Below are positions 1,859-32,635 of a stretch of 64,000 nt of DNA, in pieces. The position numbers were made by a program, and so were the translations under genes. The notes under the pieces are model-generated. The model did no database searches. It saw only the letters and a list, made by a program, of their open reading frames with translations, and was not told where the DNA came from. The number at the start of each line of letters is the position of its first letter. Within the stretch, counting starts at the first letter, position 1. Source of the DNA: Bacillota bacterium (lineage in GTDB: Bacteria; Bacillota; Dehalobacteriia; UBA4068); assembly GCA_030527285.1 (NCBI GenBank), contig JAUNBC010000007.1:13335-77334 (forward strand), in the 5' to 3' direction.

Positions 1859-2761
1859 ATGCGACATCTGCCGAATAACACGAACATAGCGGTATTGAGC
1901 CTGCTGTTCATCAGCGTCATTTGGGGCGTGCATTTTGCAATACTGAAGATCATGCTCGAAACGCTGCCGCCATTATGGATGACCGCGCTGCGCTATGGCG
2001 GGGCGGCGCTGCTGTTGGCCGTAGTGCTCAACCGGCGGCTGCGCACGATCGACAGGCCTATGCTGGCCGGCTCGCTGCCAATGCTGCTGTTTCTGGTCGC
2101 CGGTATACTGATACAGGCGGTGGGGCTGCAGTTTACGGCGGCGGGCAACGCCTCGTTCATCCTCAGCACCTATGTGGTGCTGACGCCTTTCGTCGCCTAC
2201 TTTTTTGGCAAAAAACTGCTGGGAGCCAATATTTGGGTGGCGCTGGTAACGCTGTTCGGCCTGTTTCTTTTCTCCTATGACCCAAGCAGCACTCTGACCA
2301 AAGGCGATGCGATGATGCTGGCGGTATCGGTATTCTGGGCGCTGCATATCACCTTTTTAGGGCAGGTGGTGCAAAAGCATGACCCGCTGATCATCGGCTT
2401 TTTGCAAGTGGCGGCGGCCTGCGTATGCTCCCTGGCCGGCGCATTGCTCTTGGAAGAGCTGCCACCGCTGGCGGCGGCGACTCCGCGCCTGCTGTGGTCG
2501 CTGCTGTACAGCGTGGTGCTGGCTACCGCGCTCGGCTTTATCATCCAGCCATGGGCGCAGAAATATGTGGCGGCGGCGCCGGCGGCGGTGTTAATGATGA
2601 GCCAATCGGTATTCGGCGCGGTGGCCGGCTGGGTAATGCTGAACGAAATGTTCAGCACCCGCCAGTATATCGGCGCGGCGGTCATCCTGCTGAGCATCGG
2701 CGCGTCGATACTGATCAACACCAGGCACGCGGCAAAAAAACCGGCCGCTGCGGAAAATTAG
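1859..2761 (+). CDS. EamA/DMT-family permease
   Basis: 300 aa, about 10 hydrophobic segments in two similar halves, typical of the drug/metabolite transporter (EamA) fold. Confidence 0.75.
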   Translation: MRHLPNNTNIAVLSLLFISVIWGVHFAILKIMLETLPPLWMTALRYGGAALLLAVVLNRRLRTIDRPMLAGSLPMLLFLVAGILIQAVGLQFTAAGNASFILSTYVVLTPFVAYFFGKKLLGANIWVALVTLFGLFLFSYDPSSTLTKGDAMMLAVSVFWALHITFLGQVVQKHDPLIIGFLQVAAACVCSLAGALLLEELPPLAAATPRLLWSLLYSVVLATALGFIIQPWAQKYVAAAPAAVLMMSQSVFGAVAGWVMLNEMFSTRQYIGAAVILLSIGASILINTRHAAKKPAAAEN

Positions 2762-2762
2762 C

Positions 2763-2791
2763 TTGCAGTTTACGCCGGTTTGAGATATACT
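2763..2791 (+). promoter_or_regulatory. Sigma-70-type promoter for the tRNA-Gly/tRNA-Arg unit
   Basis: TTGCAG (2763-2768), 17-nt spacer, TATACT (2786-2791), about 17 nt before the tRNA 5' end. Confidence 0.5.
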
Positions 2792-2807
2792 AAGTTCTGC
2801 GTTATCT

Positions 2808-2881
2808 GCGGGTGTAGCTCAATGGCAGAGCTCCAGCCTTCCAAGCTGGCCACGTGGGTTCGATTCCCATCACCCGCTCCA
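2808..2881 (+). tRNA. tRNA-Gly (anticodon UCC), CCA encoded
   Basis: Acceptor GCGGGTG/CACCCGC, D-arm GCTC..GAGC, anticodon stem CCAGC/GCTGG with loop CTTCCAA, T-arm GTGGG-TTCGATT-CCCAT, 3' TCCA. Confidence 0.9.
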
Positions 2882-3233
2882 TATCAAAGCCCCTTCGGGG
2901 CTTTGATATGGAGTACGACCGGTGGTGTCCAAGCTGCGGTTTTGCGCAGCAAAAGCCAGCTTCAGACCATCACCCGCTCTACCTCTGAAGCTCTAAAGAG
3001 GCTTTGATATGGAGTGCGACCGGTAGTGTCCAAGCTGCGGTTTTGCGCAGCAAAAGCCAGCTTCAGACCATCACCCGTTCTACCTCTAAATCTCTAAAGA
3101 GGCTTTGATATGGAGTACGATCGGTAGTGTCTGAGCTGCGGTTTTGCGCAGCAAAAGCCAGCTTCAGACCATCACCCGCTCTACCTCTGAAGCTCTAAAG
3201 AGGCTTTGATATGGAGTATGATCTGAATACTAT
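2867..3233 (+). repeat. Tandem array of 3.6 x ~101-bp units. Each unit is a tRNA-Gly 3' fragment, a small hairpin and a 39-nt bulged palindrome.
   Basis: CCATCACCCGCTC occurs at 2867, 2967, 3068 (one C>T) and 3169. Palindrome cores are at 2928-2966, 3029-3067 and 3130-3168. The array ends at the tRNA-Arg 5' end. Confidence 0.9.
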
Positions 3234-3310
<77 letters not shown>

Positions 3311-3395
3311 AACGTATTAAAATCCGAACGCACCCGCTACATCTTCACCGGCGGCGTGTTCGGGGTCGTGATCAAGCGCTGATCCCGACAGCAGC

Positions 3396-7183: not shown

Positions 7184-7214
7184 GAAAACCAGCATCCTGC
7201 GGATGCTGGTTTTC
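7184..7214 (+). terminator. Rho-independent terminator after tRNA-Pro
   Basis: GAAAACCAGCATCC-TGCG-GATGCTGGTTTTC. Confidence 0.7.
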
Positions 7215-7387
7215 TTTCGCCGCGTATTGAAATAAGCACGCACTAATGATAAGCTATGAAGAGGCATGGGAGGATAAACGACGGAGAAAACGGCATTCTT
7301 CCGCATACCGGCGCATGGGCATAAACAAACACATCTTTGCCTCCGCGCGCATATAATTCTACCACTGATACCGCATAAGGAGCGCTC

Positions 7388-12235: not shown

Positions 12236-12272
12236 ACCGTACCTGACAGCGGCGTGCAGCGCTAAAAAAGGC

Positions 12273-12301
12273 TTGACATTTTCCGCGGAATAGGTGATAA
12301 T
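12273..12301 (+). promoter_or_regulatory. Promoter of tRNA-Val
   Basis: TTGACA (12273-12278), 17 nt, GATAAT (12296-12301), 12 nt before the tRNA 5' end. Confidence 0.55.
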
Positions 12302-12313
12302 GATTGCGGTCAT

Positions 12314-12390
12314 GGGGTTATAGCTCAGTTGGTTAGAGCGCCACGTTGACATCGTGGAGGTCATTGGTTCGAGCCCAACTAACCCCACCA
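12314..12390 (+). tRNA. tRNA-Val (anticodon GAC), CCA encoded
   Basis: Acceptor GGGGTTA/TAACCCC, anticodon stem CCACG/CGTGG with loop TTGACAT, T-loop TTCGAGC, 3' ACCA. Confidence 0.9.
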
Positions 12391-12635
12391 TAATTAAAAC
12401 CGCCCTTGGGGGCGGTTTTAATTATGACTGGATCAGGAGTGCCTGAGCTGCGGCTCTGCGAAGCAAAGGCCAGCTTCAGGCCAACTAACCCCACCAGAAC
12501 ACAAGGCCGCCTGCAAAGGCGGTCTTGTGTTTTACTATAATCAGGAGTGCCTGAGCTGCGACTCTGCGAAGCAAAGGCCAGCTTCAGGCCAACTAACCCC
12601 ACCATAATTAAAACCGCCCTTGGGGGCGGTTTTTC
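12375..12635 (+). repeat. tRNA-Val-linked units: 16-nt tRNA 3' fragment, terminator hairpin and 39-nt bulged palindrome, 2.3 copies
   Basis: CCAACTAACCCCACCA at 12375, 12481 and 12589. Cores at 12442-12480 and 12550-12588. Hairpin A at 12391-12424 and 12605-12635; hairpin B at 12497-12532. Confidence 0.9.
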
Positions 12636-12872
12636 TTTCGCCGCGGATTTGCCGCTTGCGGCAAAAAACGCTATCGGCAACCGCCTCCGGCAAAACGAGG
12701 GCGACGGCGGAACGAGTTGAAACGTCCATAAGCATATGATAAAATACAGTTGAAACAGCGCCGTCCATAAGCATTTGTTAAAAGGATTGTTTATCAGGCG
12801 TCGTATAGATATATGCTTTACCTCTCAGCGAAAAGCAAAAGTGCTATACTGTTTATATAATAAGACAGGGGT

Positions 12873-13080
12873 GGGAAGATGCATAACGCTTCTTGCTAAA
12901 TAATAAGGCATCATCGGACGCTCGGGGTGCTTAAAGCGCCTGCTTTTGTTGTGCCTATGCAAGAAGGCTGTCATCTTCCCAAACTCTACACATAGGGCTT
13001 CGTCCGGCCTGTGAGCTGGGCTTTGTTCGTTATGCGGGGTGCGGAAAGCTACTTTCTTGCAGCCCACATTTTTTAGGAGG
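12873..13080 (+). promoter_or_regulatory. Candidate leader-peptide attenuator of the ABC-F gene
   Basis: A 6-codon ORF (MHNASC, 12879-12899) lies inside a long-range helix (12873-12896 pairs with 12959-12980). A GC hairpin (13036-13065) and TTTTTT (13069-13074) directly precede the AGGAGG RBS. Confidence 0.4.
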
Positions 13081-13088
13081 ACAAACGT

Positions 13089-14579
13089 ATGTCGCTGATT
13101 AACGTAGATAATTTGACTTTTGCATATCCGGGAAGCTACGATAATATTTTTGAAAACGTCAGCTTTCAAATCGATACAAACTGGAAACTTGGGTTCATTG
13201 GCAGAAACGGCAGAGGCAAAACGACATTTTTAAACCTGCTTCTTGGAAAATATGAATACAACGGCAGTATTTCAGCCTCGGTCAATTTTGAATATTTTCC
13301 TTATATCGTGGCCGACAATACACGAAACACTATTGATATTATCGAGGGCGTCTGTGCGGGCGTCCTGCACTGGGAGCTGCTGCGCGAGCTGTCCCTGCTT
13401 GATGTTCCGGAGGATGTGTTGCCCCGCCCCTTTTTCACGCTATCCAACGGCGAGCAGACCAAGGTTTTGCTTGCCGTCCTGTTTCTGAAAGAAAATAGCT
13501 TTTTGTTAATCGACGAGCCGACAAATCATCTTGATATTACGGCGCGTTCCATCGTGAGCCGCTATCTGAAAAGCAAAAAGGGATTTATATTAGTATCGCA
13601 TGACAGAGCCTTTTTGGACGGCTGCATAGATCATGTTCTGTCCATCAATAAAGCAAATATTGAAATACAAAGAGGCAATTTTTCCTCCTGGCTGATCAAC
13701 AAGGAGCGGCAAGACAGCTTTGAGCTTGCGGAAAACGAGAGATTAAAAAAAGAGGTGAAGCGACTTCAAAAAACCGTAAGGGAAAAAGCAAATTGGGCGG
13801 ACGCGGCGGAGCGCAAAAAGGTGGGCGTCGATCCAAGCGCGACCGATAATCGCAGTATGGGCAAACGTCCCCTGCAAGGGGCTAAATCCAAAAAGCTCAT
13901 GAAAAAGGCCAAAGCCATTGAAAAACGCCGGGAAGCCGCCGTTGAGGAAAAATCCGGGCAGCTCAAAAACATTGAAAACGCCGACCGTCTGAAAATAGCG
14001 CCGCTTTCTTATTTCACGAGCCGCCTGGCGGAGCTTGCCGACGTTTCTATTTATTATGGCTCCAAAACAGCCTGCGCAGGCGTTAGCTTTACGATAGAAT
14101 ACGGCGACCGCATTGCTCTTACGGGCAAAAACGGAAGCGGGAAATCAAGCGTGCTAAAGCTTATCCGCGGCGAGGATATGATTTATACCGGCACTTTAAA
14201 AAAAGGCAGCCGCCTAATCGTTTCCTATGTTTCACAGGACACTTCATTTTTAAGCGGCAGCCTTTCAGACTACGCTTTGCAAAATGGAATTGAGGAGAGC
14301 CTTTTCAAAGCGACCCTGCGCAAGCTGGATTTTTCAAGGGTGCAATTTGAAAAGGATATGCGCGATTTTAGCGGCGGTCAAAAGAAAAAGGTGCTGCTTG
14401 CAAGAAGCCTTTGCGAAAAGGCCCATCTGTACATTTGGGACGAGCCGTTAAATTACATCGACGTGATCTCCCGTATGCAAATTGAAGATATGATCCTGCA
14501 ATTCAAGCCAACCATTTTGTTTGTCGAGCATGATAGTGCGTTTTGCGGAAAAATCGCAACGAAAGAAGTAAGATTATAG
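13089..14579 (+). CDS. Lsa-type ARE ABC-F ribosomal protection protein (two ABC domains, no TM domain)
   Basis: 496 aa. Motifs DTNWKLGFIGRNGRGKTT, WELLRELSLL, GFILVSHDRAF, FELAENE and LYIWDEPLNY, with a charged inter-domain linker. They align well with my memory of Enterococcus Lsa(A). The gene is AT-richer than the host genes. Confidence 0.8.
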   Translation: MSLINVDNLTFAYPGSYDNIFENVSFQIDTNWKLGFIGRNGRGKTTFLNLLLGKYEYNGSISASVNFEYFPYIVADNTRNTIDIIEGVCAGVLHWELLRELSLLDVPEDVLPRPFFTLSNGEQTKVLLAVLFLKENSFLLIDEPTNHLDITARSIVSRYLKSKKGFILVSHDRAFLDGCIDHVLSINKANIEIQRGNFSSWLINKERQDSFELAENERLKKEVKRLQKTVREKANWADAAERKKVGVDPSATDNRSMGKRPLQGAKSKKLMKKAKAIEKRREAAVEEKSGQLKNIENADRLKIAPLSYFTSRLAELADVSIYYGSKTACAGVSFTIEYGDRIALTGKNGSGKSSVLKLIRGEDMIYTGTLKKGSRLIVSYVSQDTSFLSGSLSDYALQNGIEESLFKATLRKLDFSRVQFEKDMRDFSGGQKKKVLLARSLCEKAHLYIWDEPLNYIDVISRMQIEDMILQFKPTILFVEHDSAFCGKIATKEVRL

Positions 14580-14694
14580 CTTCCCCATATGCGGCGCTGT
14601 ATCTGGCTTCGAGTGGGGCTCCGCCCCCTCGAGGCTCCCCCGGACGGTGCGATACCGTGGTTTAGCATCTGCATCTTTTTGTTGGCACATGACA

Positions 14695-14752
14695 TAATTA
14701 AAACCGCCCTTGGGGGCGGTTTTAATTATGACTGGATCAGAAGTGCCTGAGC
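14695..14752 (+). repeat. Half unit: hairpin A plus spacer plus the first 7 nt of the 39-nt core, no tRNA fragment
   Basis: TAATTAAAACCGCCCTTGGGGGCGGTTTTAATTATGACTGGATCAGAAGTGCCTGAGC matches 12391-12448 almost exactly, then homology stops. Confidence 0.75.
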
Positions 14753-14870
14753 CGCGGCGGCGCTTATGGGCAAGCAGACGGCTTGCCTCTGTCCTTTTGG
14801 ACTGGGGCGCATACCTTTATGTCTGAACGCCGCTATGCGACGCTGGCGCCTGCGCTACACTTCACCGCTT

Positions 14871-15656
14871 TTACACGCTCAGGCAGATGCTGCGTTGGTT
14901 TTGCTTGCGGTCGGTGATGGTTACGACCTGCATGGGGATGCCGTAGACCTGCTCCAGACTCTCGTCGGTCAGCACTTGCTGCGGCGGTCCCAGGCTCAGA
15001 GTCTGACCCTCGCGCATCAGTAGCACCTGCGAGGCGATGGCAAAGGGCTGAGCCGGGTTATGCGTCGTGACGATGACGATCTTGCCCGCGCGAGCCAGCT
15101 CGTTGATGGCGTCGTTGATCAGCTGTTGATTGGCAAAGTCCAGACTGGCCGTGGGCTCGTCCATCATCAGGATACAGGTCTTTTGGCAGAGAGCGCGGGC
15201 GATCAGCACCAGCTGGCGCTGGCCGCCGGACATCTTGAAATAGGGGAAATCCGCCAGATGCTGTATCTTTAGCTGGCACAGGCAGTCATAGGCGATCTCG
15301 ATGTCCTCGGGCTTGGGCGTTTGCATATTGCCCAGATAGGCGGAGCGGGCCATGGTCACCATCTCCAACGCCGTATAAGCGAACATGGCCTGGTCGCGCT
15401 GCGGAATATAGGCAAAATAGCGCGCCATCTGGCGGCGGCTGAGGCGATCCACATCCACGCCGCGGCAGATGATGCGGCCCGCGGTCTTGGGGAGGAAGCG
15501 CAGCAGCAGCTTGAGCAGCGTGGATTTGCCGCAGCCGTTCGGACCCAGCAGGCACAATACGTCTCCGGCGGCCAGTCCGAAGGACAGGCCGTGCACCACT
15601 TCTTTTTTACCGTAGCCGCCACGCAGGTCGCTGACCTGTAATTCCAGCTCCGCCAT
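14871..15656 (-). CDS. Iron-siderophore/cobalamin-type ABC transporter ATPase (FecE/FepC-like)
   Basis: Walker A GPNGCGKSTLLK, signature MSGGQRQ, Walker B ILMMDEPT. Confidence 0.85.
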   Translation of the reverse strand: MAELELQVSDLRGGYGKKEVVHGLSFGLAAGDVLCLLGPNGCGKSTLLKLLLRFLPKTAGRIICRGVDVDRLSRRQMARYFAYIPQRDQAMFAYTALEMVTMARSAYLGNMQTPKPEDIEIAYDCLCQLKIQHLADFPYFKMSGGQRQLVLIARALCQKTCILMMDEPTASLDFANQQLINDAINELARAGKIVIVTTHNPAQPFAIASQVLLMREGQTLSLGPPQQVLTDESLEQVYGIPMQVVTITDRKQNQRSICLSV

Positions 15657-16685
15657 TTAAGCCTTCCCCCTTCTCAAGATCAGCATCACAAAGAACGGCG
15701 CGCCGAACAGGGCTGTAAGCACGCCAATCGGTATCTCCAGCGCCATGAGCGAGCGCGCCAAGTCGTCCATGACCAGCAGGAAGCAGCCTCCCATCAGCGC
15801 CGCCACCGGCAGCATGCGCCTGTAATCGGCTCCGGCCAGACCGCGGGCGATATGCGGCACCATCAGCCCCACCCAGCCGATCAGCCCGCCCAGACAGACC
15901 GCGCCGGCTGAAATGATGGTAGCGGCCAGAATGGCGGCCAGCCGCACCTTGCGCGGATCCACGCCGATGGCCATGGCCTCCTCGTCGCCCAGAGTCAGCA
16001 GGTTGAGCCGCCAACGCAGCAGGAACAGCGCCAGCATGCCCAGAGCCATCGGCGTAAGGCTAAACAGCAGGTCCGAGGTATCGACCTTGGATAACGAGCC
16101 CATCAGCCAGTAGGTGATGGCTGGCAGCACGTCGTTGGGGTCGGCCACATACTTGATAACTGTGATAGAGGCGTTGCACAGCTCGCGCAGCATGGTACCA
16201 GCCAGCACCAGACTGACAGCCTGACCGAATTTGGCGCGCGAGCCGATCAGGTAGGTCAAAAACACGGTGACCACGCCGAAGCAAAAAGCTGCGGCCTGCA
16301 CGCCAAAGCTGCTCCAACCCAGCAGCAGAGCCAGACAGGCGCCGAGCCCCGCGCCCTGCGACACGCCGAGAATATCCGGCGAGACGAGCGGGTTCTTGAA
16401 CATGCCCTGATAGGCCGCGCCGGCCACGGCCAGACCGGCGCCGATCAAAAAGGCGGCGGCGATGCGCGGCACGCGGATATTGCGCACGATGACCGGGATA
16501 TTGGGCTCGACCGCCTCCGCTCCGTGCAGCAGATAGGCGTAGATCTGTTGCAGCGTGGCGCCGTAGAAGCCGATATTCAGGGACAGCAGCGGCAGCAGCA
16601 GGCTCAGGGCTATCAGCAGCGGCAGCAGCCAGGGTCGCCGGAGCCGGGCCACGCCCGCCGGCAGCGTTGTTTGATGCTTGCTCAT
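15657..16685 (-). CDS. FecCD/BtuC-family ABC permease
   Basis: About 340 aa from the internal Met MSKHQTTLP. Around 9-10 TM segments with Gly-rich FecCD-type motifs. The upstream 24 codons of the track ORF lack support. Confidence 0.8.
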   Translation of the reverse strand: MSKHQTTLPAGVARLRRPWLLPLLIALSLLLPLLSLNIGFYGATLQQIYAYLLHGAEAVEPNIPVIVRNIRVPRIAAAFLIGAGLAVAGAAYQGMFKNPLVSPDILGVSQGAGLGACLALLLGWSSFGVQAAAFCFGVVTVFLTYLIGSRAKFGQAVSLVLAGTMLRELCNASITVIKYVADPNDVLPAITYWLMGSLSKVDTSDLLFSLTPMALGMLALFLLRWRLNLLTLGDEEAMAIGVDPRKVRLAAILAATIISAGAVCLGGLIGWVGLMVPHIARGLAGADYRRMLPVAALMGGCFLLVMDDLARSLMALEIPIGVLTALFGAPFFVMLILRRGKA

Positions 16686-16796
16686 TTTCACTATAGTCAA
16701 AAAAGAATATTGTTTGCGGGAAATAATTCTTTCTAAGAATAATCTATTTTGCCGCATTTGTCAATCGGCACCCGGATAACTCCATTCAACGTATAG

Positions 16797-16857
16797 TTGA
16801 CAAATCGTGCGCCGCCTATTATACTAATCTCAGAATATATATGTAAGTATATATTCT
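16797..16857 (+). promoter_or_regulatory. Consensus promoter with a perfect 10-6-10 inverted repeat operator or leader hairpin
   Basis: TTGACA (16797-16802), 17 nt, TATACT (16820-16825), then AGAATATATA-TGTAAG-TATATATTCT (16832-16857). Confidence 0.5.
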
Positions 16858-16892
16858 CACGAAAAGAGAATAGAAGAGAGAGGAGAACGAAA

Positions 16893-17981
16893 ATGAAACA
16901 CAAGCTATTGATGCTGCTGCTCTGCCTGCTGCTCAGCCTGTGCCTGCTGGCCGCCTGCGCTCAGACGCAGGAACCGGCGGTTGACGAGCAGGAGCAGGAA
17001 CAGCCTGAGGCGACGACGCGCGAGCTCGTCGACATGGCTGGGCGCACCATCACCCTGCCATCAGAAGTGGCCACCGGTCTTGGCACCGGCGCCATCGGCA
17101 GCTACATGCTCTACACACTGGATCCGGACACCATGGTCGGCGTCAACTATGAGTTCAACGACCAGGAGAAGGCCTATATCCTCGAAGCCTACCATGACCT
17201 GCCCAGCTTTGGCCAGGGCGACGGCTTCAACCTTGAAGCCGTGGTGGCCGCCGCGCCGGATGTGCTGATCAACTACGGCTCCGTCAACGACGCCACCATC
17301 AGCTCGGCTGACGACATTCAGGCTCAGACCGGTATCCCCTGCGTGGTGCTGAACAGCGATATGGAAGAAACGGCAGCCGCCTACCGCATGCTGGGCGAGA
17401 TCTTCGGCATGCCGGAGCGGGCTGAGGAGCTGGCTGTCTATGCTGAAGAAGCCCTGGCCTTCGCGGAGTCCATCGATATCCCCGAAGAAGAACGGGTCAG
17501 CGTCTATTTCGGCAATGGACTGGAAAATCTGGAGACGGCGCCGGTCGGTTCCTGGCACGCTAGCCTGCTGGAGCTGGTTGACGCCATCAACGTGGCCGTG
17601 GTCGAAGGCGAGGTCACGAACCGTATCGACGTCAGCGCTGAGCAGGTCATCGGCTGGAATCCCGAGGTGGTGCTGCTCAACGGCGAACCGACGGAGGATC
17701 TCTCGCCTGTTCAGGCCGTGGAAGCCTTCCTGGCCGATGCGCGCTACCAGAACGTGCAGGCTGTGGTCAACGATCAGGTCTATGCCATCCCTAAATATCC
17801 CTACTCCTGGTTTGACCGTCCTCCCGGACCCAACCGCCTCATCGGCATCTATTGGCTGGCCGAGCTGCTGTATCCGGAGAATTTCGATCTGGATATCAAG
17901 GCTGAGGCGCGCGAATTCTACGCCCTTTATTATCATATGGAGCTCAGCGACGAGCAGCTCGTCGACCTGTTAGGCTACTGA
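16893..17981 (+). CDS. Periplasmic-binding-protein (class III, siderophore/B12-type) lipoprotein
   Basis: An internal ATG after GAGAGGAGAA gives MKHKLLMLLLCLLLSLCLLAAC (lipobox), followed by an acidic linker and a PBP fold. Confidence 0.8.
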   Translation: MKHKLLMLLLCLLLSLCLLAACAQTQEPAVDEQEQEQPEATTRELVDMAGRTITLPSEVATGLGTGAIGSYMLYTLDPDTMVGVNYEFNDQEKAYILEAYHDLPSFGQGDGFNLEAVVAAAPDVLINYGSVNDATISSADDIQAQTGIPCVVLNSDMEETAAAYRMLGEIFGMPERAEELAVYAEEALAFAESIDIPEEERVSVYFGNGLENLETAPVGSWHASLLELVDAINVAVVEGEVTNRIDVSAEQVIGWNPEVVLLNGEPTEDLSPVQAVEAFLADARYQNVQAVVNDQVYAIPKYPYSWFDRPPGPNRLIGIYWLAELLYPENFDLDIKAEAREFYALYYHMELSDEQLVDLLGY

Positions 17982-18070
17982 TCCCCGCTTGAAATAGCGG
18001 TAAAGGTGATTGCCCTTGTTACACACACTGGAGAATAACTGCGTCTTTTTTGCACGCACATGACGCAACA

Positions 18071-18100
18071 AAAAGCCATCCTTTGAGGATGGCTTTTTGC
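18071..18100. terminator. Bidirectional terminator hairpin
   Basis: AAAAAGCCATCC-TTTGA-GGATGGCTTTTT. Confidence 0.6.
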
Positions 18101-18117
18101 TATGGTGATTGGCAGCG

Positions 18118-18278
18118 TCTGAGCTGCGGCTCGGCGAAGCAAAGGCCAGCTTCAGGCCAACTAACCCCACCAGAACACAAGGCCGCCTGCAAAGGCGGTC
18201 TTGTGTTTTACTATAATCAGGAGTGCCTGAGCTGCGGCTCTGCGAAGCAAAGGCCAACTTCAGGCCAACCAACCCCGC
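18118..18278 (+). repeat. Distal tRNA-Val-linked units: core, 16-nt fragment, hairpin B, core, degenerate fragment
   Basis: Cores at 18118-18156 and 18226-18264. CCAACTAACCCCACCA at 18157-18172. Hairpin B at 18173-18208. CCAACCAACCCCGC at 18265-18278. Confidence 0.9.
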
Positions 18279-18441
18279 TTCATCGTTTCGCTGGCCAATT
18301 TCTTGCGTTCCGGCGTGTACCGCTTATTCGGTACTTGCTTTGGAAATAGCGACGCCCCATTTGTTTTTCAGTATGCAATACTGTCAAACGAATAGGGCGC
18401 CATTTATCATTTCTTACATATGTTTATTCTCATTAGGTTCG

Positions 18442-19446
18442 CTAAACTCTGATCAGTTTGAGAATATTACCGGTTTTATGAAAATTCAGCGTTTGTATAT
18501 AAAGATTTCCTTGCTCATCGCCGCAGATCCCATGCGCCATCAAAGGAGAATTTTCATAACCAAGCTGCGATACGATATTCATATCCATATCAAGAATAGT
18601 AATACCGCCGTCCACCTCGCCAACGAAAACATTTTCTGTATTGGCCCAAATATCCGCTGGTTTATAAATCAAATCCTTTATCACGGCAAGTAGTTCGCCT
18701 GCGGTAGAAAAAACTTGTATACGGCTGTTTTCCCTATCTGCTAACCACAGGCGCTCCATCCTATCTATCCATAAACCATGGGGCAAACGAAACTCCCCAT
18801 CATTGTTTCCGGGATTGCCCCATGTCTTGGTCAACGTGCCGTCAGCGGAAAACTTGTGTATCGCGGCATTACCATAGCCATCGGCGGCAAAAAAATCTCC
18901 CGTTGATGATTCTATCATTTTAGCCGGTTGATTAAAGGGCGCTCCGGTACGCTTGATAGTTCTTAATCCATCAACTGGAGAAAAAGCAGCGTTAAAATGT
19001 ATGTCGTTCGGTATCCCATATTCCCTTTTGAGCCAAGAACAAACGTCCTGCTCATATCCGGTATCAGAAGGATGATTTATAACGCCAAAATCGCGCAGCA
19101 GTTGGCCATCAGCATCAATTTCACGCACGATATGCCGCTTTTTATCGGTACACAATACCGTGTTGCGCGGCGTAACAAATATTCCGTGCAAATCATCGCT
19201 AAACAAGCCTTGCCCCAAAGACTGCTGATAATTGCCGTTAGCATCAAAGACGATAATCGGATTGTTTATATCGCGAGTTGATACGTACAAATTGCCGCGG
19301 CAATCAAAACAGCCGGAGACTACCGTACTTTTTCTCAGATATTCGGGCCATTTCGCCCAGCCGCAATCCAATTTATAGGAGAAGCCCCTATTACTAAAAA
19401 CCACATCGGCTTCCGCCGTCCGGTATTTATTACCGTATATGTCCAT
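18442..19446 (-). CDS. NHL-repeat six-bladed beta-propeller, peptidyl-alpha-hydroxyglycine alpha-amidating lyase (PAL)-like
   Basis: 334 aa. The stretch GDFFAADGYGNAAIHKFSADGTLTKTWG..GEFRLPHGLWID..LWLADRENSRIQVF parallels, from my memory of rat PAL, GAVFVSDGYCNSRIVQFSPSGKFVTQWG..GQFSVPHSLAL..LCVADRENGRIQCF. Three HG motifs (H87, H223, H305), DGY191 and ADR238EN. Confidence 0.7.
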   Translation of the reverse strand: MDIYGNKYRTAEADVVFSNRGFSYKLDCGWAKWPEYLRKSTVVSGCFDCRGNLYVSTRDINNPIIVFDANGNYQQSLGQGLFSDDLHGIFVTPRNTVLCTDKKRHIVREIDADGQLLRDFGVINHPSDTGYEQDVCSWLKREYGIPNDIHFNAAFSPVDGLRTIKRTGAPFNQPAKMIESSTGDFFAADGYGNAAIHKFSADGTLTKTWGNPGNNDGEFRLPHGLWIDRMERLWLADRENSRIQVFSTAGELLAVIKDLIYKPADIWANTENVFVGEVDGGITILDMDMNIVSQLGYENSPLMAHGICGDEQGNLYIQTLNFHKTGNILKLIRV

Positions 19447-19617
19447 TCACGTGAACCTCCCGCTTGTTTTCACTAAAAAGAAAGGGCGACGCCTATCTGC
19501 GCCACCCTCCTTTTTAGCTCAGACGCCCTGTTCATCCATAATCTGTGCTTTTCTATCCTATGGAAAAAAGAGGGGACGTATTAAATCAATGAATTTCCGC
19601 AAAACCTTACGGCTAAA

Positions 19618-21015
19618 CTATGCTTTCCTGTTTGCCATATGGCTCCATACCGGCTTGCCCCAATGCTTTGTTCCGCTGGCCTCCGGATCGACCACGCCTT
19701 CATCCATTACTACTTTGCCTCTCAGGATAGTGTAATTAAGCTTGCATCCTAAAATGTCGTCATCGTAGATCTTGGTATTGGGTGTAAACTCACAACGCAT
19801 TTGATCGTGCAAATCAAAAATCACCAGATCGCCATCAGAGCCCGGTTGTATAACCCCTTTTTGCGGATAAATATTGAAGCATTTTGCGGGGTTCTCACAA
19901 CATAGCTGAACTACTCTCTCCAGCGTTATACCACGCTCTCCTTTAACTACTTCGTTTATCATCAGCGGCAACCGCAGGTTTATGCCTTGAAACCCTGATA
20001 TACCCAAGAAAATATTTTCGTTACCTCTTTCATTCTCTTCTCTTGTGTCGTCGCCATGATCGCTGCCGATCCAATCGACAGTTCCGTCTAAGACGTATTC
20101 CCATATGGCGTCGATAGTCTCCTGGTTTCGCAGAGGCGGGTTGCATTTTCCGTAAGCCTTATGCTTGACTACTTCTTCTTCTGTTTTGAGAAGATAATGC
20201 GGGCAAGTCTCCAAGAAAACTTTTTTGTTTTTAGCTTTGGCTTCTTTCGCCATTTGCATAGCTTCCGGCGTAGAGATATGAGCCAGAAGCAGGGCGCAAC
20301 CCGTTGCATCGGCAATCGTCATCAGCTTTTGCACTTCCAAGTATTCAGATATGGGCGGTCTGGACAAAGAATGATACTTTCCGTCCACCTTGCCCTCGCT
20401 GATAAACTTGTTTATCAAACTGCTGATTATATCATTGTTCTCCGCGTGCGAAGCCAGCATTAAGCCTGTTTTGGCGATTTCCGTCATACCCACTAACACT
20501 TCATAATCTGTGGACATGGTCAAGCCAGTAAATTCTTTTTCCCTTCCCGGAAGCGGTTCATGCAAAAATGTCTTATATGCTATCGCGCCCGCCTCCGCTA
20601 AGTCAACGATATTTTCGGGAAACTCTCCGCCGGCAGCCCCATAAAACGCATAGTCTACAACGCTACCGCGCTCTTCAACAACTTTAAACCTGTTCAAAAA
20701 GATATCTTTATTATACGGCGGAGGCGAGGAAACCGGATGCTCAAGAATGGTGGTCGTGCCGCCTCTTGCCGCCAACATCGATTCCGAATCCCATTTAGCC
20801 CGTCCCGGAATGGTGGGATCACGAAAATGGACATGGGGATCGATACCGCCAGGGATAACATATTTACCTTCGGCATCGATCGTTTTCTCCGCTTTCGGTA
20901 AACAACCCGGCTCCGTGATCATCGCAAATTTTTCGTCTTTGATGCCAATGTCGACTTTCTTAAATACTCCGCCAACATATGCCGTACCATTAATGACCGC
21001 AAGATCTAATTCCAT
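19618..21015 (-). CDS. Cyclic amidohydrolase (allantoinase/hydantoinase/dihydropyrimidinase family)
   Basis: 465 aa. Metal ligands in family order: HVHFRD, AYKTF (carbamylated Lys), ASHAE, LAHIS, GSDHG. Confidence 0.8.
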   Translation of the reverse strand: MELDLAVINGTAYVGGVFKKVDIGIKDEKFAMITEPGCLPKAEKTIDAEGKYVIPGGIDPHVHFRDPTIPGRAKWDSESMLAARGGTTTILEHPVSSPPPYNKDIFLNRFKVVEERGSVVDYAFYGAAGGEFPENIVDLAEAGAIAYKTFLHEPLPGREKEFTGLTMSTDYEVLVGMTEIAKTGLMLASHAENNDIISSLINKFISEGKVDGKYHSLSRPPISEYLEVQKLMTIADATGCALLLAHISTPEAMQMAKEAKAKNKKVFLETCPHYLLKTEEEVVKHKAYGKCNPPLRNQETIDAIWEYVLDGTVDWIGSDHGDDTREENERGNENIFLGISGFQGINLRLPLMINEVVKGERGITLERVVQLCCENPAKCFNIYPQKGVIQPGSDGDLVIFDLHDQMRCEFTPNTKIYDDDILGCKLNYTILRGKVVMDEGVVDPEASGTKHWGKPVWSHMANRKA

Positions 21016-21057
21016 TTTTGGCCCCCCGATTCATTTGGTTTCTGCAAACAATCTTTG

Positions 21058-22092
21058 CTATTCCGCATTTAATAGATTAACGTATATCTCATACACTTCG
21101 GGGTCAACATTTTCTTCGATCAACGGCCAAGTGGTTTTTGCCAGATCAGCAAAAGCCTGTCTTTGTTCCTCCGTCAGATCAACAAAGATGATGCCTGCTT
21201 CTTCAAGTAATTCTCTGCTTTCCACCAAGCCCGCATCGGCAAATTCCCTTGACCAGTCAAACGCGACAGCGGCGGCTTCGTTCAGCAGCTGTTGAATATC
21301 CGCCGGCAAAGAATTCCAGAATTCCAGATTGATGATAATCGGGCAGGTAAGATGAATATGACTCGTCATGGTCACGTACTTTTGCTGCTCATAATACTTG
21401 TCGAAATAAATCGATTGCAGCGGATTTTCCTGAGCGTCAACAATCCCTTGCTGCAAAGCCACATAAATCTCACTTCCGGGTATCGGCGTCGGGTTGGCGC
21501 CCATAGCCTGCCAGGCCGCTATATGATACTTATTATCCATCGTTCTAAGAGTTAAGCCGTTCAAATCCTCCGGAGTTTCGATCATTATATTTGAGGACAA
21601 TTCTCTAAAATGCCCGTCAGTAATGCCCATCAACTTAATTCCAGCCGCCTCGTATTTCTCGTTGAGGATGGCTAACAATTCCGGATCAGCGATAACTTCT
21701 CTGGCATGTTCAGCGCTCTTATAAGCAAACGCCATGTCAAAGATCGCCAGATCGGGAATGAAGTTAGCCTGCGCCGCGGCAGTACCCACATGCATGGTAA
21801 CGCTGCCAGTCTGAAGCCCCTCGATGATCTCTCTTTCCGAGCCAAGCTGAGCGTTAGGATATACGCTGACTACAACCCGACCATCGGCATGCTCATCAAT
21901 GTATTCCTTAAACTTGATGCAATACTGCGAAACTGTTGTTTCCTCGGCGCTGCCGGTTGCTAAAATCATTTCATATACGGTCGCATCATCTACAACCGCC
22001 TCACCGCTGTCAGCGGGATCGTCTGTGGCGCAAGCTGCAAATACTAACGCGACCAAGACTAAAGCAAATAATAAGCCAATCATTTTTTTCAT
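21058..22092 (-). CDS. dctP: TRAP transporter substrate-binding protein (DctP family), lipoprotein
   Basis: Start MKKMIGLLFALVLVALVFAAC after GGAAGGTG, followed by a DctP-type fold. Track start 22113 is an alternative. Confidence 0.8.
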   Translation of the reverse strand: MKKMIGLLFALVLVALVFAACATDDPADSGEAVVDDATVYEMILATGSAEETTVSQYCIKFKEYIDEHADGRVVVSVYPNAQLGSEREIIEGLQTGSVTMHVGTAAAQANFIPDLAIFDMAFAYKSAEHAREVIADPELLAILNEKYEAAGIKLMGITDGHFRELSSNIMIETPEDLNGLTLRTMDNKYHIAAWQAMGANPTPIPGSEIYVALQQGIVDAQENPLQSIYFDKYYEQQKYVTMTSHIHLTCPIIINLEFWNSLPADIQQLLNEAAAVAFDWSREFADAGLVESRELLEEAGIIFVDLTEEQRQAFADLAKTTWPLIEENVDPEVYEIYVNLLNAE

Positions 22093-22333
22093 TTTTTTCA
22101 CCTTCCCATACATTATTTTTTGATATTCAATACCGTTTTGCGCTTATGCTTCATCGAATAATCATTTTTCATACCTCCCAGCAAAAATTATTATCCAAAA
22201 TACATCCAGTACCATATAGAATATACGTTCGTTGCAAGCATCAGTTATCTACTTAACAACAACTTTTAACCTGTATCATTATTGCGCACGCTGCGAGGAT
22301 TACACTCAGCGTCTAAGCGCCCCTGACGAGAAA

Positions 22334-23623
22334 TCATTTGAGCAGCACTAAGCTTAATTCCGGAATAAATGTTACGATCAGCAACGCCACAATAAATGAA
22401 ATAATAGCCGGTACAGCTTTTTTGGCAATAGACAGCACCGGTACGTCGCTTATCCTGCTTGCCACAAATAAGTTAGCGCCAATGGGCGGTGTAATGAAGC
22501 CTATGGCAAAAGTAATTACCATTACGACGCCAAAGTGAATCGGGTCTATACCTACTGCGTTTACTATTGGCATACAGATCGGCGCAAGGATCATGATCGC
22601 AACCAGGCCATCCATAAGCATACCCACAATCGTGCAGAAGCCAATGAGTATTAAGAACACTCCAACCGGCGTTGATACCATAGACAGCAAAGTTTCTGTT
22701 AATTGCTGCGGCACCTGCATCAAGGTAAGCACTCTCCCGAAAACCAGTCCCGCAGACATTATCACCATTAACGGACCAATAGAGCATATGGAGTCTTTAG
22801 TAACTCGAATAATGTCCTTGATACTTAACGAACGATAAATAAAGCATCCAACTATCAGAGCATAAACAACTGAAACGTCTGCTGCTTCTGTAGGAGTGAC
22901 GATGCCGCCATAAATACCGCCAAGGATTATTACCGGTGATAATAGCGCCCAAAAACTGTTCTTGAACAGCTGCCAGAAGCTCATCTTTCGTAATTCAACG
23001 TAGTTCTCCAGCAGTTTTTCTTTATCTTCGCCCTTTTTCTTGCAATAGTAATAGGCGTACAGCATCATGCACAAACCCATGATTATGCCCGGAATAATAC
23101 CGGCAATAAACAGGTCGCCCACAGACTCCCCTGTCGCAACACCAAAAACGATAAACGGAATGCTTGGGGGAATGATTACCCCCAAAGAACCAGCGACGGC
23201 TACAATGGCAACTACCCAATTCTTTTCGTACCCGAAATTGACCAAAATCGGGATTGTCATAACGCCGACCGCCGCTACTGTAGCCCCTGCGGAACCACAG
23301 ATAGCGCCATAAAACAAACAGGTGGCAATGATCGCTATCGGCAACCCGCCTGTTTTATTACCGGCAAAATATGCAATAAAATCGAATATCTTTTTTGATA
23401 TACCGCTGGCTGCCATCAGGTTTCCGGATAAAACAAAAAGCGGTATTGCAAGCAAGGTGAACGAATCGATACCTGTTATCATACTGCGGAAAACATATAC
23501 GGCGTCAGCTGCAAATGACGGCAGCACCATAGACGGAACCAGCGAAGATAAGGCTATCGAAATACCAATAGGTACTCCCACCAGTAAAGTAATCAAAAAA
23601 ACCGCAAACACATATGCTGTCAC
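22334..23623 (-). CDS. dctM: TRAP transporter large permease (DctM)
   Basis: 429 aa, about 12 TM segments, typical DctM composition. Start abuts the dctQ stop. Confidence 0.85.
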   Translation of the reverse strand: MTAYVFAVFLITLLVGVPIGISIALSSLVPSMVLPSFAADAVYVFRSMITGIDSFTLLAIPLFVLSGNLMAASGISKKIFDFIAYFAGNKTGGLPIAIIATCLFYGAICGSAGATVAAVGVMTIPILVNFGYEKNWVVAIVAVAGSLGVIIPPSIPFIVFGVATGESVGDLFIAGIIPGIIMGLCMMLYAYYYCKKKGEDKEKLLENYVELRKMSFWQLFKNSFWALLSPVIILGGIYGGIVTPTEAADVSVVYALIVGCFIYRSLSIKDIIRVTKDSICSIGPLMVIMSAGLVFGRVLTLMQVPQQLTETLLSMVSTPVGVFLILIGFCTIVGMLMDGLVAIMILAPICMPIVNAVGIDPIHFGVVMVITFAIGFITPPIGANLFVASRISDVPVLSIAKKAVPAIISFIVALLIVTFIPELSLVLLK

Positions 23624-24111
23624 TAATCCGCCCTCCTTTGACTAAATCTATAAAGCTTTTTAATATATTTCTCAATAAATCTGACTAAAGAAAAGAAAAT
23701 CCCCACCAGAAAAGACAAATATACTAAATACATGGGAATACTGAGGGCGGCGCTGGTTTGATTGCTGTTGATTAGATAATTTATCACTTCTATTCCCGGC
23801 TTTATCATATATACGATAAAAACGACAAATAAGATATCGCCAAATATTAATAAGAATTTTTTTGTTTTCGGGAAAAAAGACTCTACTAAATCCAGCCGGA
23901 TGTGAGTGTTGTTATTGATCCCGTAGCTAAGCGCCAAAAAAGAAAACCAAATGAAAATGTATCTCGACAGTTCGTCAGACCAAGATAAAGATGAATGGAA
24001 AACATACCTCATTATGACAGATATGCCCATGATCAATACTATTGCCCATAAGGCGCTGCCCATAATTATCCCTTCAAAATTATCGTCAATCCATTTTAAG
24101 GCTTTTTTCAT
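23623..24111 (-). CDS. dctQ: TRAP transporter small permease (DctQ)
   Basis: Internal start MKKALKWIDDNFEG after AGGAGGAGAAAA. Four TM segments, about 162 aa. Confidence 0.75.
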   Translation of the reverse strand: MKKALKWIDDNFEGIIMGSALWAIVLIMGISVIMRYVFHSSLSWSDELSRYIFIWFSFLALSYGINNNTHIRLDLVESFFPKTKKFLLIFGDILFVVFIVYMIKPGIEVINYLINSNQTSAALSIPMYLVYLSFLVGIFFSLVRFIEKYIKKLYRFSQRRAD

Positions 24112-24193
24112 TTTTCTCCTCCTGTGCTCAGATCCTGTACTCAGATAATAGCCGCCATTATACAATCAGCACGAGAAATAATTCTGGGGTCCA

Positions 24194-25393
24194 TCAAATA
24201 TCCGCTTCATCGATCCTGATAATAGTTTCCAATAATAAATCAGTTCCTATCTTGATATCTTCCATTGCCGAAAACTCTTCAGGACTATGGCTGACGCCAT
24301 TCTTACTGGGCACAAATATCATTACCGTAGGCACATGCAAGCCAAATTCCTTCGCGTCATGCCCTGCGGAGCTGCCCATGGTTTTATATTTCTGGCCATT
24401 TTCTTTGCATATGCTCTCTACTATGTCTACTAAACGCTCATCCATGGCCACGGCCGGTTTATAAACGTGCAGGTTGTAGCTGATCTTGCATCTGGTTTCT
24501 TTATTAGCTTCCTTCTGTACTTCGCAAATGAATTCTTCCATATTCTTTGAGCTAAAATCTCTAATCGAAAGAGATAATTCCACTCGTCCGGGAATAACAT
24601 TAGACGCATTTGGAAACACGTTTAATTCTCCCACCGTCCATACAAAAGGATGTGGATACTTTTTGGCTATCTCTTCAACTTTACATAGAAACTTGGCCGC
24701 GCACATGACCGCGTCTTTTCTTTTATTCATGGGCGTGCAGCCGGCATGATTGGCTTCGCCAATTATTGTAATATGGTACGTCATGATCCCAACTATGTTA
24801 TTCACAATACCCACCGGGATGCGCTCATCGTCGAGCACTTTCCCTTGCTCGATATGCAGCTCCAAAAAAGCCTTGATTTTGGAAGTATCTGCTCTCAACT
24901 CTAAAACGCGGGGATCAATGCCGAGCTTCTGTAATTCTAACAAAACCTCTTCCGTTTGGGTGTTCTCGCGGCCTAACAAAACCCTGCTGCTGAAGCACCC
25001 GCCTAATTCGGGTAGTTCTTCACAGTTTAAGGCAATTATTTCCAGAGGATGCCGCGTATAGTATGAATTATCATTCAACGTATTAAGACATTCCAACGCC
25101 GCTGCGACGCCTAAGTTGCCGTCAAAAATGCCGCCATTTACAACCGTGTCCAAATGTGAACCTAATACGATCGCCGGCAGATCGTTATTCTTACCCTCTC
25201 TTCTGCCGATTACATTTCCCAGTTCATCCATATGCACCGTCAGATTTGCGGCCTTCATCTGTTGTGCCAAGACTTCTGCGGCTTGATAGTATTCTTTACT
25301 CCAGGCAACTCTGGTAATACCGCCATGCTCGTTTTTGCCGATATTACCTACTGCGTAAAGATTTTTTTCTAATCTAAAAATATTGGTCTCCAT
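24194..25393 (-). CDS. M20-family amidase, allantoate amidohydrolase/N-carbamoyl-amino-acid hydrolase type
   Basis: Start METNIF after AGGAGG. GGITRVAWSKEY..VLGSHLDTVVNGGIFDGNLGV is typical of the AllC/AmaB (hydantoinase/carbamoylase) family. Confidence 0.8.
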   Translation of the reverse strand: METNIFRLEKNLYAVGNIGKNEHGGITRVAWSKEYYQAAEVLAQQMKAANLTVHMDELGNVIGRREGKNNDLPAIVLGSHLDTVVNGGIFDGNLGVAAALECLNTLNDNSYYTRHPLEIIALNCEELPELGGCFSSRVLLGRENTQTEEVLLELQKLGIDPRVLELRADTSKIKAFLELHIEQGKVLDDERIPVGIVNNIVGIMTYHITIIGEANHAGCTPMNKRKDAVMCAAKFLCKVEEIAKKYPHPFVWTVGELNVFPNASNVIPGRVELSLSIRDFSSKNMEEFICEVQKEANKETRCKISYNLHVYKPAVAMDERLVDIVESICKENGQKYKTMGSSAGHDAKEFGLHVPTVMIFVPSKNGVSHSPEEFSAMEDIKIGTDLLLETIIRIDEADI

Positions 25394-25530
25394 TTTTCCT
25401 CCTGCTTTCACGGTATGAATGCGCCATCTTTATTTCGAACACAAACCCGGCAGCAATGAAAGAGCAAATAATTATCTTGGTTATTGACGCCTCAGACAAA
25501 CTATCGAATTAAAGACTCCAAATGCCATTA

Positions 25531-26550
25531 TCATATTTTATATATCCAACCTGCGGGCGCTTCGATATCACCTGTTTGAATACCAAACAGGGTATCATAC
25601 AGCTTGGTAATCACAGGGCCGGCCTCTGTTTCGCTATAAAACACATGCGGATTGCCTCGATACTCCAAACGACCGATAGGAGTTGCAAGCTTAGCCGTTC
25701 CGCATATGCCCGCCTCCGCCAATTGGTCAATTTTATCAATATAAATGTCCGTTTCAAGCGCTTCCATCGCACAATAATCGCGTGCAACTTGCATCAATGA
25801 CATTTTTGTTATACCGGGTAGTATCGACGGCGAGTATGGCGTTACAAACTTGTTGTCCTTGGTAACGCCAAAGAAATTGGCTCCGCCGGCTTCATCAATT
25901 TTTGTATGAGTAACCGGGTCGAGAAACAGGCAACCGGCAAACCCCCTACTCGCAGCCTCAGCATTAGCCTGCAAGCTGGCTGCGTAATTACCGCCGACCT
26001 TTATAGCGCCCGTACCATGCGCAGCCGCCCGATCCTGTTCGGTTACTATATAATTCACGGGACGCAATTTATCTTTATACCCCGACCCGACAGGCAGCAC
26101 AAATATAGAAAAGATATACTCCGACGCAGGTTTAGAACCTATATTATCGCCAATGCCAATAATATAAGGACGCAAATATAAGGTCGCCCCGGAACCATAA
26201 GGGGGGATCCATGCTTCATTCGCCCTTACAACCTGTGCGCAAGCTTCGATGAACTTCTCTGTCGCAACAGTCGGCATTAAAAGCTTTTCGCAGCCTCGCT
26301 GCATACGCTTTGCGTTTTCATCTGGCCGGAATAATTGTATGCCGCCATCTTGTGTGCTATAAGCTTTAAGGCCTTCGAAGCATTCCTGCGCATAATGCAA
26401 ACAGGTCGATCCTTCGCTGATAGTAATTTTATTGTCCTCGACAAGCTGGCCGTCATCCCAGCGGCCGTTTCGCCAATATGAAATATATCTCTTATCTGTT
26501 TTGATATAGCTAAAACCCAATTCCGACCAATCAATGTCTTTTTTTTGCAT
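25531..26550 (-). CDS. ilvE: Branched-chain-amino-acid aminotransferase (fold type IV, long form)
   Basis: 339 aa. Contains CFEGLKAY, YLRPYIIG, GGNYAAS and GITK, which match class-IV BCAT motifs. Confidence 0.8.
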   Translation of the reverse strand: MQKKDIDWSELGFSYIKTDKRYISYWRNGRWDDGQLVEDNKITISEGSTCLHYAQECFEGLKAYSTQDGGIQLFRPDENAKRMQRGCEKLLMPTVATEKFIEACAQVVRANEAWIPPYGSGATLYLRPYIIGIGDNIGSKPASEYIFSIFVLPVGSGYKDKLRPVNYIVTEQDRAAAHGTGAIKVGGNYAASLQANAEAASRGFAGCLFLDPVTHTKIDEAGGANFFGVTKDNKFVTPYSPSILPGITKMSLMQVARDYCAMEALETDIYIDKIDQLAEAGICGTAKLATPIGRLEYRGNPHVFYSETEAGPVITKLYDTLFGIQTGDIEAPAGWIYKI

Positions 26551-26603
26551 ACTGTTCTCCCTTTATATTACCTCTGACATAAAACCCGATATCGGTGTCC
26601 AGA

Positions 26604-27791: not shown

Positions 27792-28046
27792 AAGAAACAC
27801 CTCCAAAATAGACGATTTAATCATAGTAAATATACATTTACTGTTATTAAATTATCTATTTCTTCATCTTTGCAAATTCTCCTTCTTTTTCTCAACATTT
27901 TTTGTATTGTGTTTGCCAGTAAGAAAATTACGCGATTGGCACGAAAGCTAAGCGTGTATCAGCATGATCATATATACCTTTTTATTCCGATAGCGTCGGT
28001 TACGCCAATAAACAGTTCACGCTTTGCTCAGCCGGCATTACGCCAT

Positions 28047-32611: not shown

Positions 32612-32635
32612 TTTGTTCCCCCTCCCTTACTATAT

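Follow-up and report, generated by a model that had tools for sequence, protein, structure and literature searches.

A family of short bulged hairpins in the MAG of an uncultured Bacillota relative of the Oscillospiraceae is joined to 3′ pieces of two different tRNA genes, tRNA-Val and tRNA-Gly, at the same structural position, and belongs to larger modules that are most likely scars of site-specific insertion and that resemble the tRNA-linked repeats (TLRs) of E. coli rather than a new type of system. In the 64-kb window (the whole stretch of DNA that was analysed) most of the stacked modules are empty, with a length of about 101-108 bp, and two retain cargo.

The hairpin family and its fold

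Seven full copies of the 39-nt hairpin and one stub were found in the window, all on the + strand (Table 1). The Val-type copies show 0-2 mismatches to that at 12442, and the Gly-type copies comprise one with TCTGAG and two TCCAAG variants; the stub is the tail of a 66-nt copy of 12389-12454. Dinucleotide-preserving shuffles gave an expectation of 0 matches for the 39-nt Val-type sequence, and a search of the 64 kb with a profile of the seven copies revealed no further hairpin. Matching, shuffles and profile search together confirmed the positions reported in the preliminary description for every copy and for the stub, and showed a single orientation relative to the tRNAs rather than equal frequencies of both.

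Fold prediction gave an 18-3-18 bulged palindrome with the irregularities that had been described earlier, namely a bulged T34 and unpaired C10, G12 and G28. A C15.A25 mismatch is confined to the Val-type hairpin, and the T bulge is lost through a register shift in the Gly copies at 2928 and 3029. The − strand is predicted to fold about as well as the + strand, or better. Six positions distinguish the Val from the Gly consensus, and comparison of the two bore out the compensatory changes from C-G to T-A that had been noticed at 1/39 and 13/27; of the other differences, that at position 15 repairs the mismatch and that at position 20 lies in the loop. The probability of two compensated pairs among six random changes was 0.002, or 0.019 if only transitions were allowed. 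In a formal count of pairs, 2 of 16 covaried, nine were invariant and five departed through unpaired cells alone, and the observed covariation score was reached by 9 of 500 shuffles. The covariation is therefore thin, as the preliminary description had conceded, and since no relatives were found it is not extendable past the two families. Within the families, the variants T16G, G32A and T3C+G4A mostly break pairs. These results indicate that the hairpin is genuine and has been retained between the Val and Gly families, and that single copies are in decay.

Two local peculiarities of the Gly copies were observed. The hairpins at 2928-2936 and 3029-3037 begin TCCAAGCTG rather than TCTGAGCTG and so match, over 9 nt, the tRNA-Gly gene about 90 nt upstream, in which these letters span the anticodon loop and the 3′ strand of its stem (2840-2848); this start breaks two hairpin pairs and abolishes the T bulge, and may reflect short-patch conversion or chance. 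The terminator-like T′ that follows the Gly pieces contains TCTGAAGCT (2984-2992, 3085-3093 and 3186-3194; TCTAAATCT in the middle copy), and the 3′ foot of the hairpin, AGCTTCAGA, which lies 17 nt upstream, has exactly the reverse-complementary sequence. TCTGAAGCT and AGCTTCAGA thus make a 9-bp inverted repeat around the Gly tRNA piece that is absent from the Val type; a check for MITE-like ends showed a 9-bp terminal inverted repeat restricted to the Gly T′ units.

Junctions, module anatomy and cargo

In all seven full copies the 3′ foot of the hairpin directly contacts the tRNA piece, as had been claimed, whichever of the two tRNAs supplies it and including the copy whose piece, at 18265, is degenerate. 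The tRNA-Val piece starts with the first base of the T-stem 3′ strand, position 61 (CCAAC TAACCCC A CCA), and the tRNA-Gly piece one base later, at position 62. The repeat start is accordingly the first base past the T-loop, and the hairpin foot shares just TTC of the loop; with the loop itself outside the identity, the modules do not agree with a classic 7-bp overlap there. The tRNA-Val pieces at 12481, 12589 and 18157 are identical in 16/16 nt, CCA included, and that at 18265 in 12/16 nt, the latter being probably the displaced original tRNA-Val end. The pieces in the Gly units match the tRNA-Gly end in 13-14 of 15 nt, with CTA replacing CCA. The observation from which the work started, that one conserved hairpin is joined to 3′ pieces of two tRNAs, thus held, and the evidence supports a recombination junction at this point rather than chance or a tRNA-like fold. 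A tRNA-like fold or RNase P minihelix was rejected, as the leader shows no complementarity to the 3′ strand of the acceptor stem and no partial tRNA was matched.

The 39-nt unit of the preliminary description proved to be a correctly recognised hairpin within a larger module, sometimes with cargo, that had been missed. A leader of about 20 nt before the hairpin is conserved across the families (TATG, 2-6 nt, GAYYRGNRGYG), and a terminator-like hairpin precedes every 39-nt hairpin and follows every tRNA piece, so that the repeating module consists of a tRNA piece (15-16 nt), a terminator, a leader and a hairpin, in that order and in head-to-tail stacks. It spans 108 bp at tRNA-Val and 101 bp at tRNA-Gly, and on either side of every module stands a 15-16-nt copy of the tRNA 3′ end, in direct orientation. 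Terminators T1 and T2 are strong, and a search for promoters inside the modules returned weak -10-like boxes, none of them convincing. Successive Val modules carry the unrelated terminators T1, T2 and T3 and hence represent insertions that took place separately rather than a simple tandem duplication. Among the three Gly modules the similarity is 96-97%; they have the CTA change in common, and together with the native downstream sequence they share the right half of the terminator and the start of the leader, beyond the tRNA piece. The Gly locus runs from tRNA-Gly through three modules to a fourth tRNA piece that continues into the promoter-like site of tRNA-Arg. At the Val locus, tRNA-Val is followed by two empty modules, a 5.6-kb filled stretch, one empty module and the degenerate piece at 18265, and cargo has moved two of the Val units 5.7 kb away from the gene.

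Table 1. Features of the tRNA-Gly and tRNA-Val arrays, with positions in the window.
Feature	Position	Strand	Details
tRNA-Gly(UCC)	2808..2881	+	last 15 nt (2867-2881) = repeated piece; anticodon loop/stem TCCAAGCTG at 2840-2848
Gly module 1	2882..2927	+	17-bp perfect hairpin including tRNA end (T0), then leader ...TATGGAGTACGACCGGTGGTG
Gly-type hairpin	2928..2966	+	TCCAAG variant
tRNA-Gly piece, terminator-like T′, leader	2967..3028	+	piece CCATCACCCGCTCTA at 2967-2981; TCTGAAGCT at 2984-2992
Gly-type hairpin	3029..3067	+	TCCAAG variant
tRNA-Gly piece, T′, leader	3068..3129	+	piece at 3068-3082
Gly-type hairpin	3130..3168	+	TCTGAG
Last tRNA-Gly piece and T′	3169..3233	+	piece at 3169-3183; runs into promoter-like site of tRNA-Arg (3234-3310)
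tRNA-Val(GAC)	12314..12390	+	promoter-like site 12273-12301; last 16 nt (12375-12390) = repeated piece
Terminator T1, leader L1	12391..12441	+	T1 at 12391-12424
Val-type hairpin	12442..12480	+	reference copy
tRNA-Val piece, terminator T2, leader L2	12481..12549	+	piece at 12481-12496; T2 unlike T1; L2 ACTATAATCAGGAGTG
Val-type hairpin	12550..12588	+	G12A
tRNA-Val piece, second T1 copy	12589..12633	+	piece at 12589-12604
Cargo 1	12634..14667	+	47% GC; Lsa-like ABC-F gene 13089-14579
Module end: X motif, T1, L1, stub	14668..14758	+	X motif at 14668-14693; stub at 14746-14758, 5′ arm only
Cargo 2	14759..18038		~60% GC; ABC ATPase 14871-15656 (−), FecCD permease 15657-16757 (−), binding protein 16797-17981 (+)
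X′ motif, terminator T3, diverged leader L3	18039..18117	+	X′ at 18039-18064; T3 at 18070-18098
Val-type hairpin	18118..18156	+	C1T + T16G
tRNA-Val piece, T2, L2	18157..18225	+	piece at 18157-18172
Val-type hairpin	18226..18264	+	G32A; also end of independent Logan contig
Degenerate tRNA-Val piece	18265..18280	+	CCAACCAACCCCGCTT; GC ~45% from here on

Both cargo segments have a foreign base composition in a genome with a GC content of 58-65%. The first (12.6-14.7 kb; 47% GC) carries an Lsa-like ABC-F ribosomal-protection gene, which scored 471 bits with NF000355 (cut-off 380) and 712.6 with the Lsa model, just under the cut-off of 750; the second (14.8-18.0 kb; ~60% GC) encodes a FecCD-type (iron/B12-type) ABC importer. 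A homologous block of about 115 nt, made up of X motif, terminator, leader and hairpin, ends both segments. Apart from a 3.36-kb importer segment, 14693-18280 is equivalent to 12389-12604, so that the two appear as the filled and the empty version of one site; such internal paralogues, from one genome, are no more than suggestive of integration or excision.

Several further observations were made in and around the cargo. The X motif, CTGCRTCTTTTT(T)G...GCACATGAC, lies at 14668-14693 and 18039-18064, just before the cargo-end terminators, and has no copy elsewhere in the window. The ABC-F gene is preceded by a promoter-like site and by a 22-nt sequence that occurs twice in direct orientation (12723-12744 and 12762-12783), and these are possibly its regulatory leader. 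The stub (14746-14764 region) has the 5′ arm only, and after it comes the importer segment with a complete hairpin at its end (18118-18136); stub and hairpin possibly share the G16 variant (CGGCG), and stub and shared G16 together suggest a break or crossover near the hairpin apex. A serine recombinase with its crossover at the apex is a possible reading of the stub, for which the indications are limited to the G16 variant and a 6/7-nt similarity. Finally, TTTTCTTTCGCCGCG[T/G]ATT occurs in nearly identical form after two unrelated terminator stems, at 7205-7228 after tRNA-Pro and at 12626-12649 after the third tRNA-Val piece.

Beyond the Val array, an island of 37-47% GC (18281-33000) lies between the 3′ ends of the convergent tRNA-Val and tRNA-Ser genes. 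It encodes an NHL protein, an amidohydrolase, a TRAP transporter, an M20 peptidase, two aminotransferases, an IclR and an HTH regulator. A search for an integrase in the island was negative, and a 381-aa ORF at 30191-31336 (−) had no Pfam, PHROG or NCBIfam match. In the Logan assembly of SRR24915838, which represents the same organism, the island forms a separate, repeat-bounded contig of 14.7 kb, and a contig ends in the 18226 hairpin joined to the island. The 18226 junction is consequently not peculiar to one assembly. The tRNA-Ser(CGA) gene on the other side (− strand; region 32797-33349) has the same kind of scar with another filler and without the 39-nt hairpin family: its last 16 nt recur, from the T-stem 3′ strand and with one mismatch, at 33068-33083, a degenerate third copy lies at about 32847-32858, and the terminator occurs twice (33211-33260 and 32797-32846). 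This region also contains a perfect hairpin of 13 bp, at 33159-33187.

Proposed integration at tRNA genes and the alternatives

We give about an even chance to the explanation that site-specific integration at the T-loop region has left the modules as its junctions and that the hairpin is the arm on the element side. From the layout we infer a circle, a recombinase and an order of events. Small integrative modules would form a family in which the hairpin, with its leader of about 20 nt, makes up the right-hand arm, and in the circular form this arm would stand beside a tRNA piece and so make an attP-like site. A site-specific recombinase, encoded elsewhere or lost, would insert the circle into tRNA-Val or tRNA-Gly where T-loop and T-stem meet; the gene would be completed by the incoming tRNA piece and terminator, and the native 3′ end would be displaced downstream, where it would abut the hairpin as an attR-type junction. 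Stacks could then grow as more elements entered that site and as modules crossed over unequally or lost internal sequence, and a deletion between the two T1 copies would turn the ABC-F module into the empty module at 12375-12480. The hairpin would most simply be an imperfect palindrome bound by the recombinase, its arms kept complementary via compensatory change.

In favour of integration, identity starts at the same junction position in two tRNAs (61 in Val, 62 in Gly), direct repeats of the tRNA end surround every module, and the Val modules differ in their terminators. Val pieces and hairpins also lie 5.7 kb from the gene, behind cargo of 47% and 60% GC, one end block of about 115 nt is found on both cargo segments, and one site occurs in empty and filled versions (12389-12604 and 14693-18280). 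The tRNA-Ser scar, at the same T-stem 3′ strand and with a duplicated terminator and different filler, argues in the same direction, as does the recovery of the 18226 junction in an independent Logan contig. Against integration, no recombinase lies within the 64 kb, empty modules of about 100 bp are far below the known size of CIMEs, the 18-3-18 palindrome is unlike known tyrosine-recombinase core sites, and the sharing beyond the tRNA piece in the Gly modules also fits local duplication.

Neither a recombinase nor a relative was present in what was searched. No sizeable ORF scanned in the 64 kb had an integrase, transposase or HUH domain. Degenerate hairpin patterns gave 26, 41 and 41 matches in GTDB representatives (596 Gb of representative genomes), JGI metagenomes and IMG/VR, respectively, all of them due to chance, apparently within coding sequence and without hairpin or tRNA piece; blastn of PLSDB and INPHARED returned no match to the hairpin family, and six-frame unit peptides had no match among 5.8 billion proteins at E up to 10. 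The Rfam models detected only tRNAs, whether applied to the window at the gathering threshold or, with E up to 5, to 2750-3350 and 12250-12700, where the arrays lie next to their tRNA genes. The nearest FeoB relatives are Oscillibacter-like (~70% identity), with no synteny and no tRNA nearby, and relatives of the importer binding protein (73-79%) belong to the same 3-gene module in other contexts, without hairpin or X motif. A CRISPR-like array, type III antitoxin repeats, a retron and a casposon or MITE were rejected, there being no associated genes in the window. These results indicate that the repeat family is real and lineage-restricted; as no relatives were found, its mobility is unproven.

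The TLRs of E. coli (RF00391, RtT; rrA/rrB/rrF; Egan and Landy, 1978; Rudd, 1999), a class with this architecture that the preliminary description had overlooked, comprise 22 units at ten loci. They stand just downstream of different tRNA or rRNA genes, 1-5 to a locus, and each carries at its end a copy of the final 18-19 nt of the gene that it follows. In MG1655 the tyrT units end ...GAAGCGCGCAGCGCTGAGTAA|TCCTTCCCCCACCACCA, with identity beginning in the T-loop (AATCCTTCCCCCACCACCA), and rrnB has the order 5S end, T1, a body ending GGCGGGCAGGACGCCCGCC ATAA, repeated 5S end and T2; a GC-rich hairpin stands 3-4 nt before the repeated piece, and a terminator follows each piece. The arrays described here are similar in that three units stand behind tRNA-Gly and two behind tRNA-Val in the same + orientation, that the 3′ end of the unit is the end of the upstream tRNA (15-16 nt, slightly shorter than the 18-19 nt of E. 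coli) and that each repeated piece has its terminator. However, their body is about 60 nt long as against 100-150 nt, the tRNA piece follows the hairpin immediately, without a spacer, some units bracket kilobases of foreign cargo, and the organism belongs to another phylum, with no homology in sequence or structure. The RtT model scored 133-138 bits on the tyrT units, yet in the same search it matched nothing in the window at the gathering threshold (the only setting used for the stub and the 18.0-18.3 kb array), nor at E up to 5 in 2750-3350 and 12250-12700. The two families are thus analogous, not homologous. As for a match to a repeat already described, the architecture of the TLRs was found here without their sequence model, and neither attC nor REP agreed.

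This likeness raises the alternative of an RNA role of TLR type, in which the transcript would be ended by the next terminator and the stacks would have formed via unequal crossing-over. We regard it as unlikely, although it is compatible with an integrative origin. The succession of gene end, terminator, hairpin body, repeated gene end and second terminator is that of rrnB T1-T2 and of tyrT, and for rrnB read-through transcripts and processing beside the repeat have been published; compensatory change maintains the hairpin, and three Val pieces have kept 16/16 nt with their CCA. However, the terminators T1 and T2 are strong and the modules contain no convincing promoter, the Gly pieces have CTA and not CCA, the copies at 18.1 kb come after a protein operon rather than a tRNA, within-family variants break pairs, no Rfam family including RtT matched the window at the gathering threshold, and the cargo and the stub are left unexplained. 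It is very improbable that the arrays reflect no dedicated mobility at all, having come about by local duplication or slippage round a palindromic spacer or by mis-assembly of the metagenome. The 96-97% likeness of the Gly modules and their common CTA change would agree with this, and the source is a MAG, with short-read contigs that break at these repeats; but the same hairpin occupies the same structural position in two different tRNAs 9 kb apart, the terminators of the Val modules are unrelated, the GC of the cargo is foreign, and the 18226 junction was found in a separate assembly.

The preliminary description had likened the hairpin to recombination sites that act as folded single strands, namely integron attC, IS200/IS605 ends and REP/RAYT. 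The recombination junction stood; the folded-strand models were not supported, as neither boxes nor guide pairing was found, nor an enzyme in the window. A site of attC or HUH type, cut at the 3′ foot and joined to the tRNA T-loop boundary as its attI to build a cassette array, is improbable in our estimation. It could account for the irregularities that recur in the bulged hairpins of both families, for a junction exactly at the hairpin foot in 7/7 copies, for the cassette-like layout of gene(s) followed by a site, with empty units besides, for two cargo segments of different origin with the same end block, and for the location of every copy on one strand. This orientation is forced by the tRNA piece, however, and hence uninformative on strand; moreover, the − strand folds equally well or better, the T bulge is removed by the register shift in two Gly copies, and the covariation is equally expected from a double-stranded palindrome bound by a dimer. 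Like attC sites, the hairpin is bulged and imperfect and would stand at the 3′ end of a cassette, the sequence past the crossover derives from the partner site, and arrays without a nearby integrase exist as CALINs. Integron attC sites are 57-141 nt long, compared with 39 nt here; a search of all arrays on both strands revealed no RYYYAAC/GTTRRRY boxes (R″/R′), a tRNA gene takes the place of the docking site, and the window has no IntI or Phage_integrase-type match. With IS200/IS605 and REP elements the hairpins have in common a subterminal imperfect hairpin with a bulged T and a putative cut point near the foot. Pairing between leader and target was at chance, however, the duplex energy of the leader with its cognate tRNA piece being no better than in shuffles (P 0.28-0.84) and often worse than with non-cognate ends, and modules are flanked by 15-16-nt direct repeats whereas IS200/IS605 make none. 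REP-like dispersal or inverted pairs were not seen in the 64 kb, where copies occur in tRNA-linked stacks only and in one orientation; the bases before the foot are GGAGTG, GGTGGTG, GGTAGTG and GCAGCG, with GTAG 2 nt before the foot in just 2/7 copies, and the window has no TnpA (Y1), TnpB, RAYT or other HUH gene. The anatomy allows a folded single-strand mechanism without giving it positive support, and its likelihood is small; we attach as little probability to the fuller version in which a trans-acting recombinase would cut the folded strand at the foot and use the T-loop boundary of the tRNA as a dock, the result being an integron-like cassette array that would have captured the Lsa-like ABC-F gene and the metal/corrinoid importer.

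Returning to site-specific integration, the arrays share with CIMEs, tycheposon remnants and ssrA islands the partial tRNA 3′ ends around inserted DNA and the pushing outward of older elements by newer ones. Partial tRNAs flank published stacked elements and their remnants, and integrases with a T-loop sublocation in tRNA genes have been published; published CIMEs are integrase-less, keep both att sites and grow by accretion, and here too no recombinase domain was found in the ORFs scanned and both flanking repeats are retained. A conserved element-side motif beside the repeat, which is known from the ssrA islands of Dehalococcoides, and cargo of atypical composition are further points of similarity. 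The arrays differ from stacked elements in their empty units of about 100 bp, in having no integrase in 64 kb, in the 18-3-18 bulged palindrome at the junction and in an identity that starts after the T-loop.

Significance

The hairpin modules are best filed with tRNA-linked repeats or integrase-less integration modules, and they are not evidence for a new class of recombination site. Coming from one genome, with no recombinase and no relatives, they constitute a lead and not a discovery, one that is of interest also since the modules bracket a resistance-type ABC-F gene. The TLRs of E. coli have been known since 1978 without an accepted origin or function, and the modules are a non-homologous counterpart of them in a distant phylum. 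If the folded-site reading were true, it could by the same reasoning account for how the E. coli TLRs arose. The cargo bracketed by module ends points to TLR-type repeats as footprints, or still usable sites, of site-specific gene capture at tRNA genes. If confirmed, this would provide a testable origin for TLRs and a type of small integrase-less module that annotation pipelines have overlooked.
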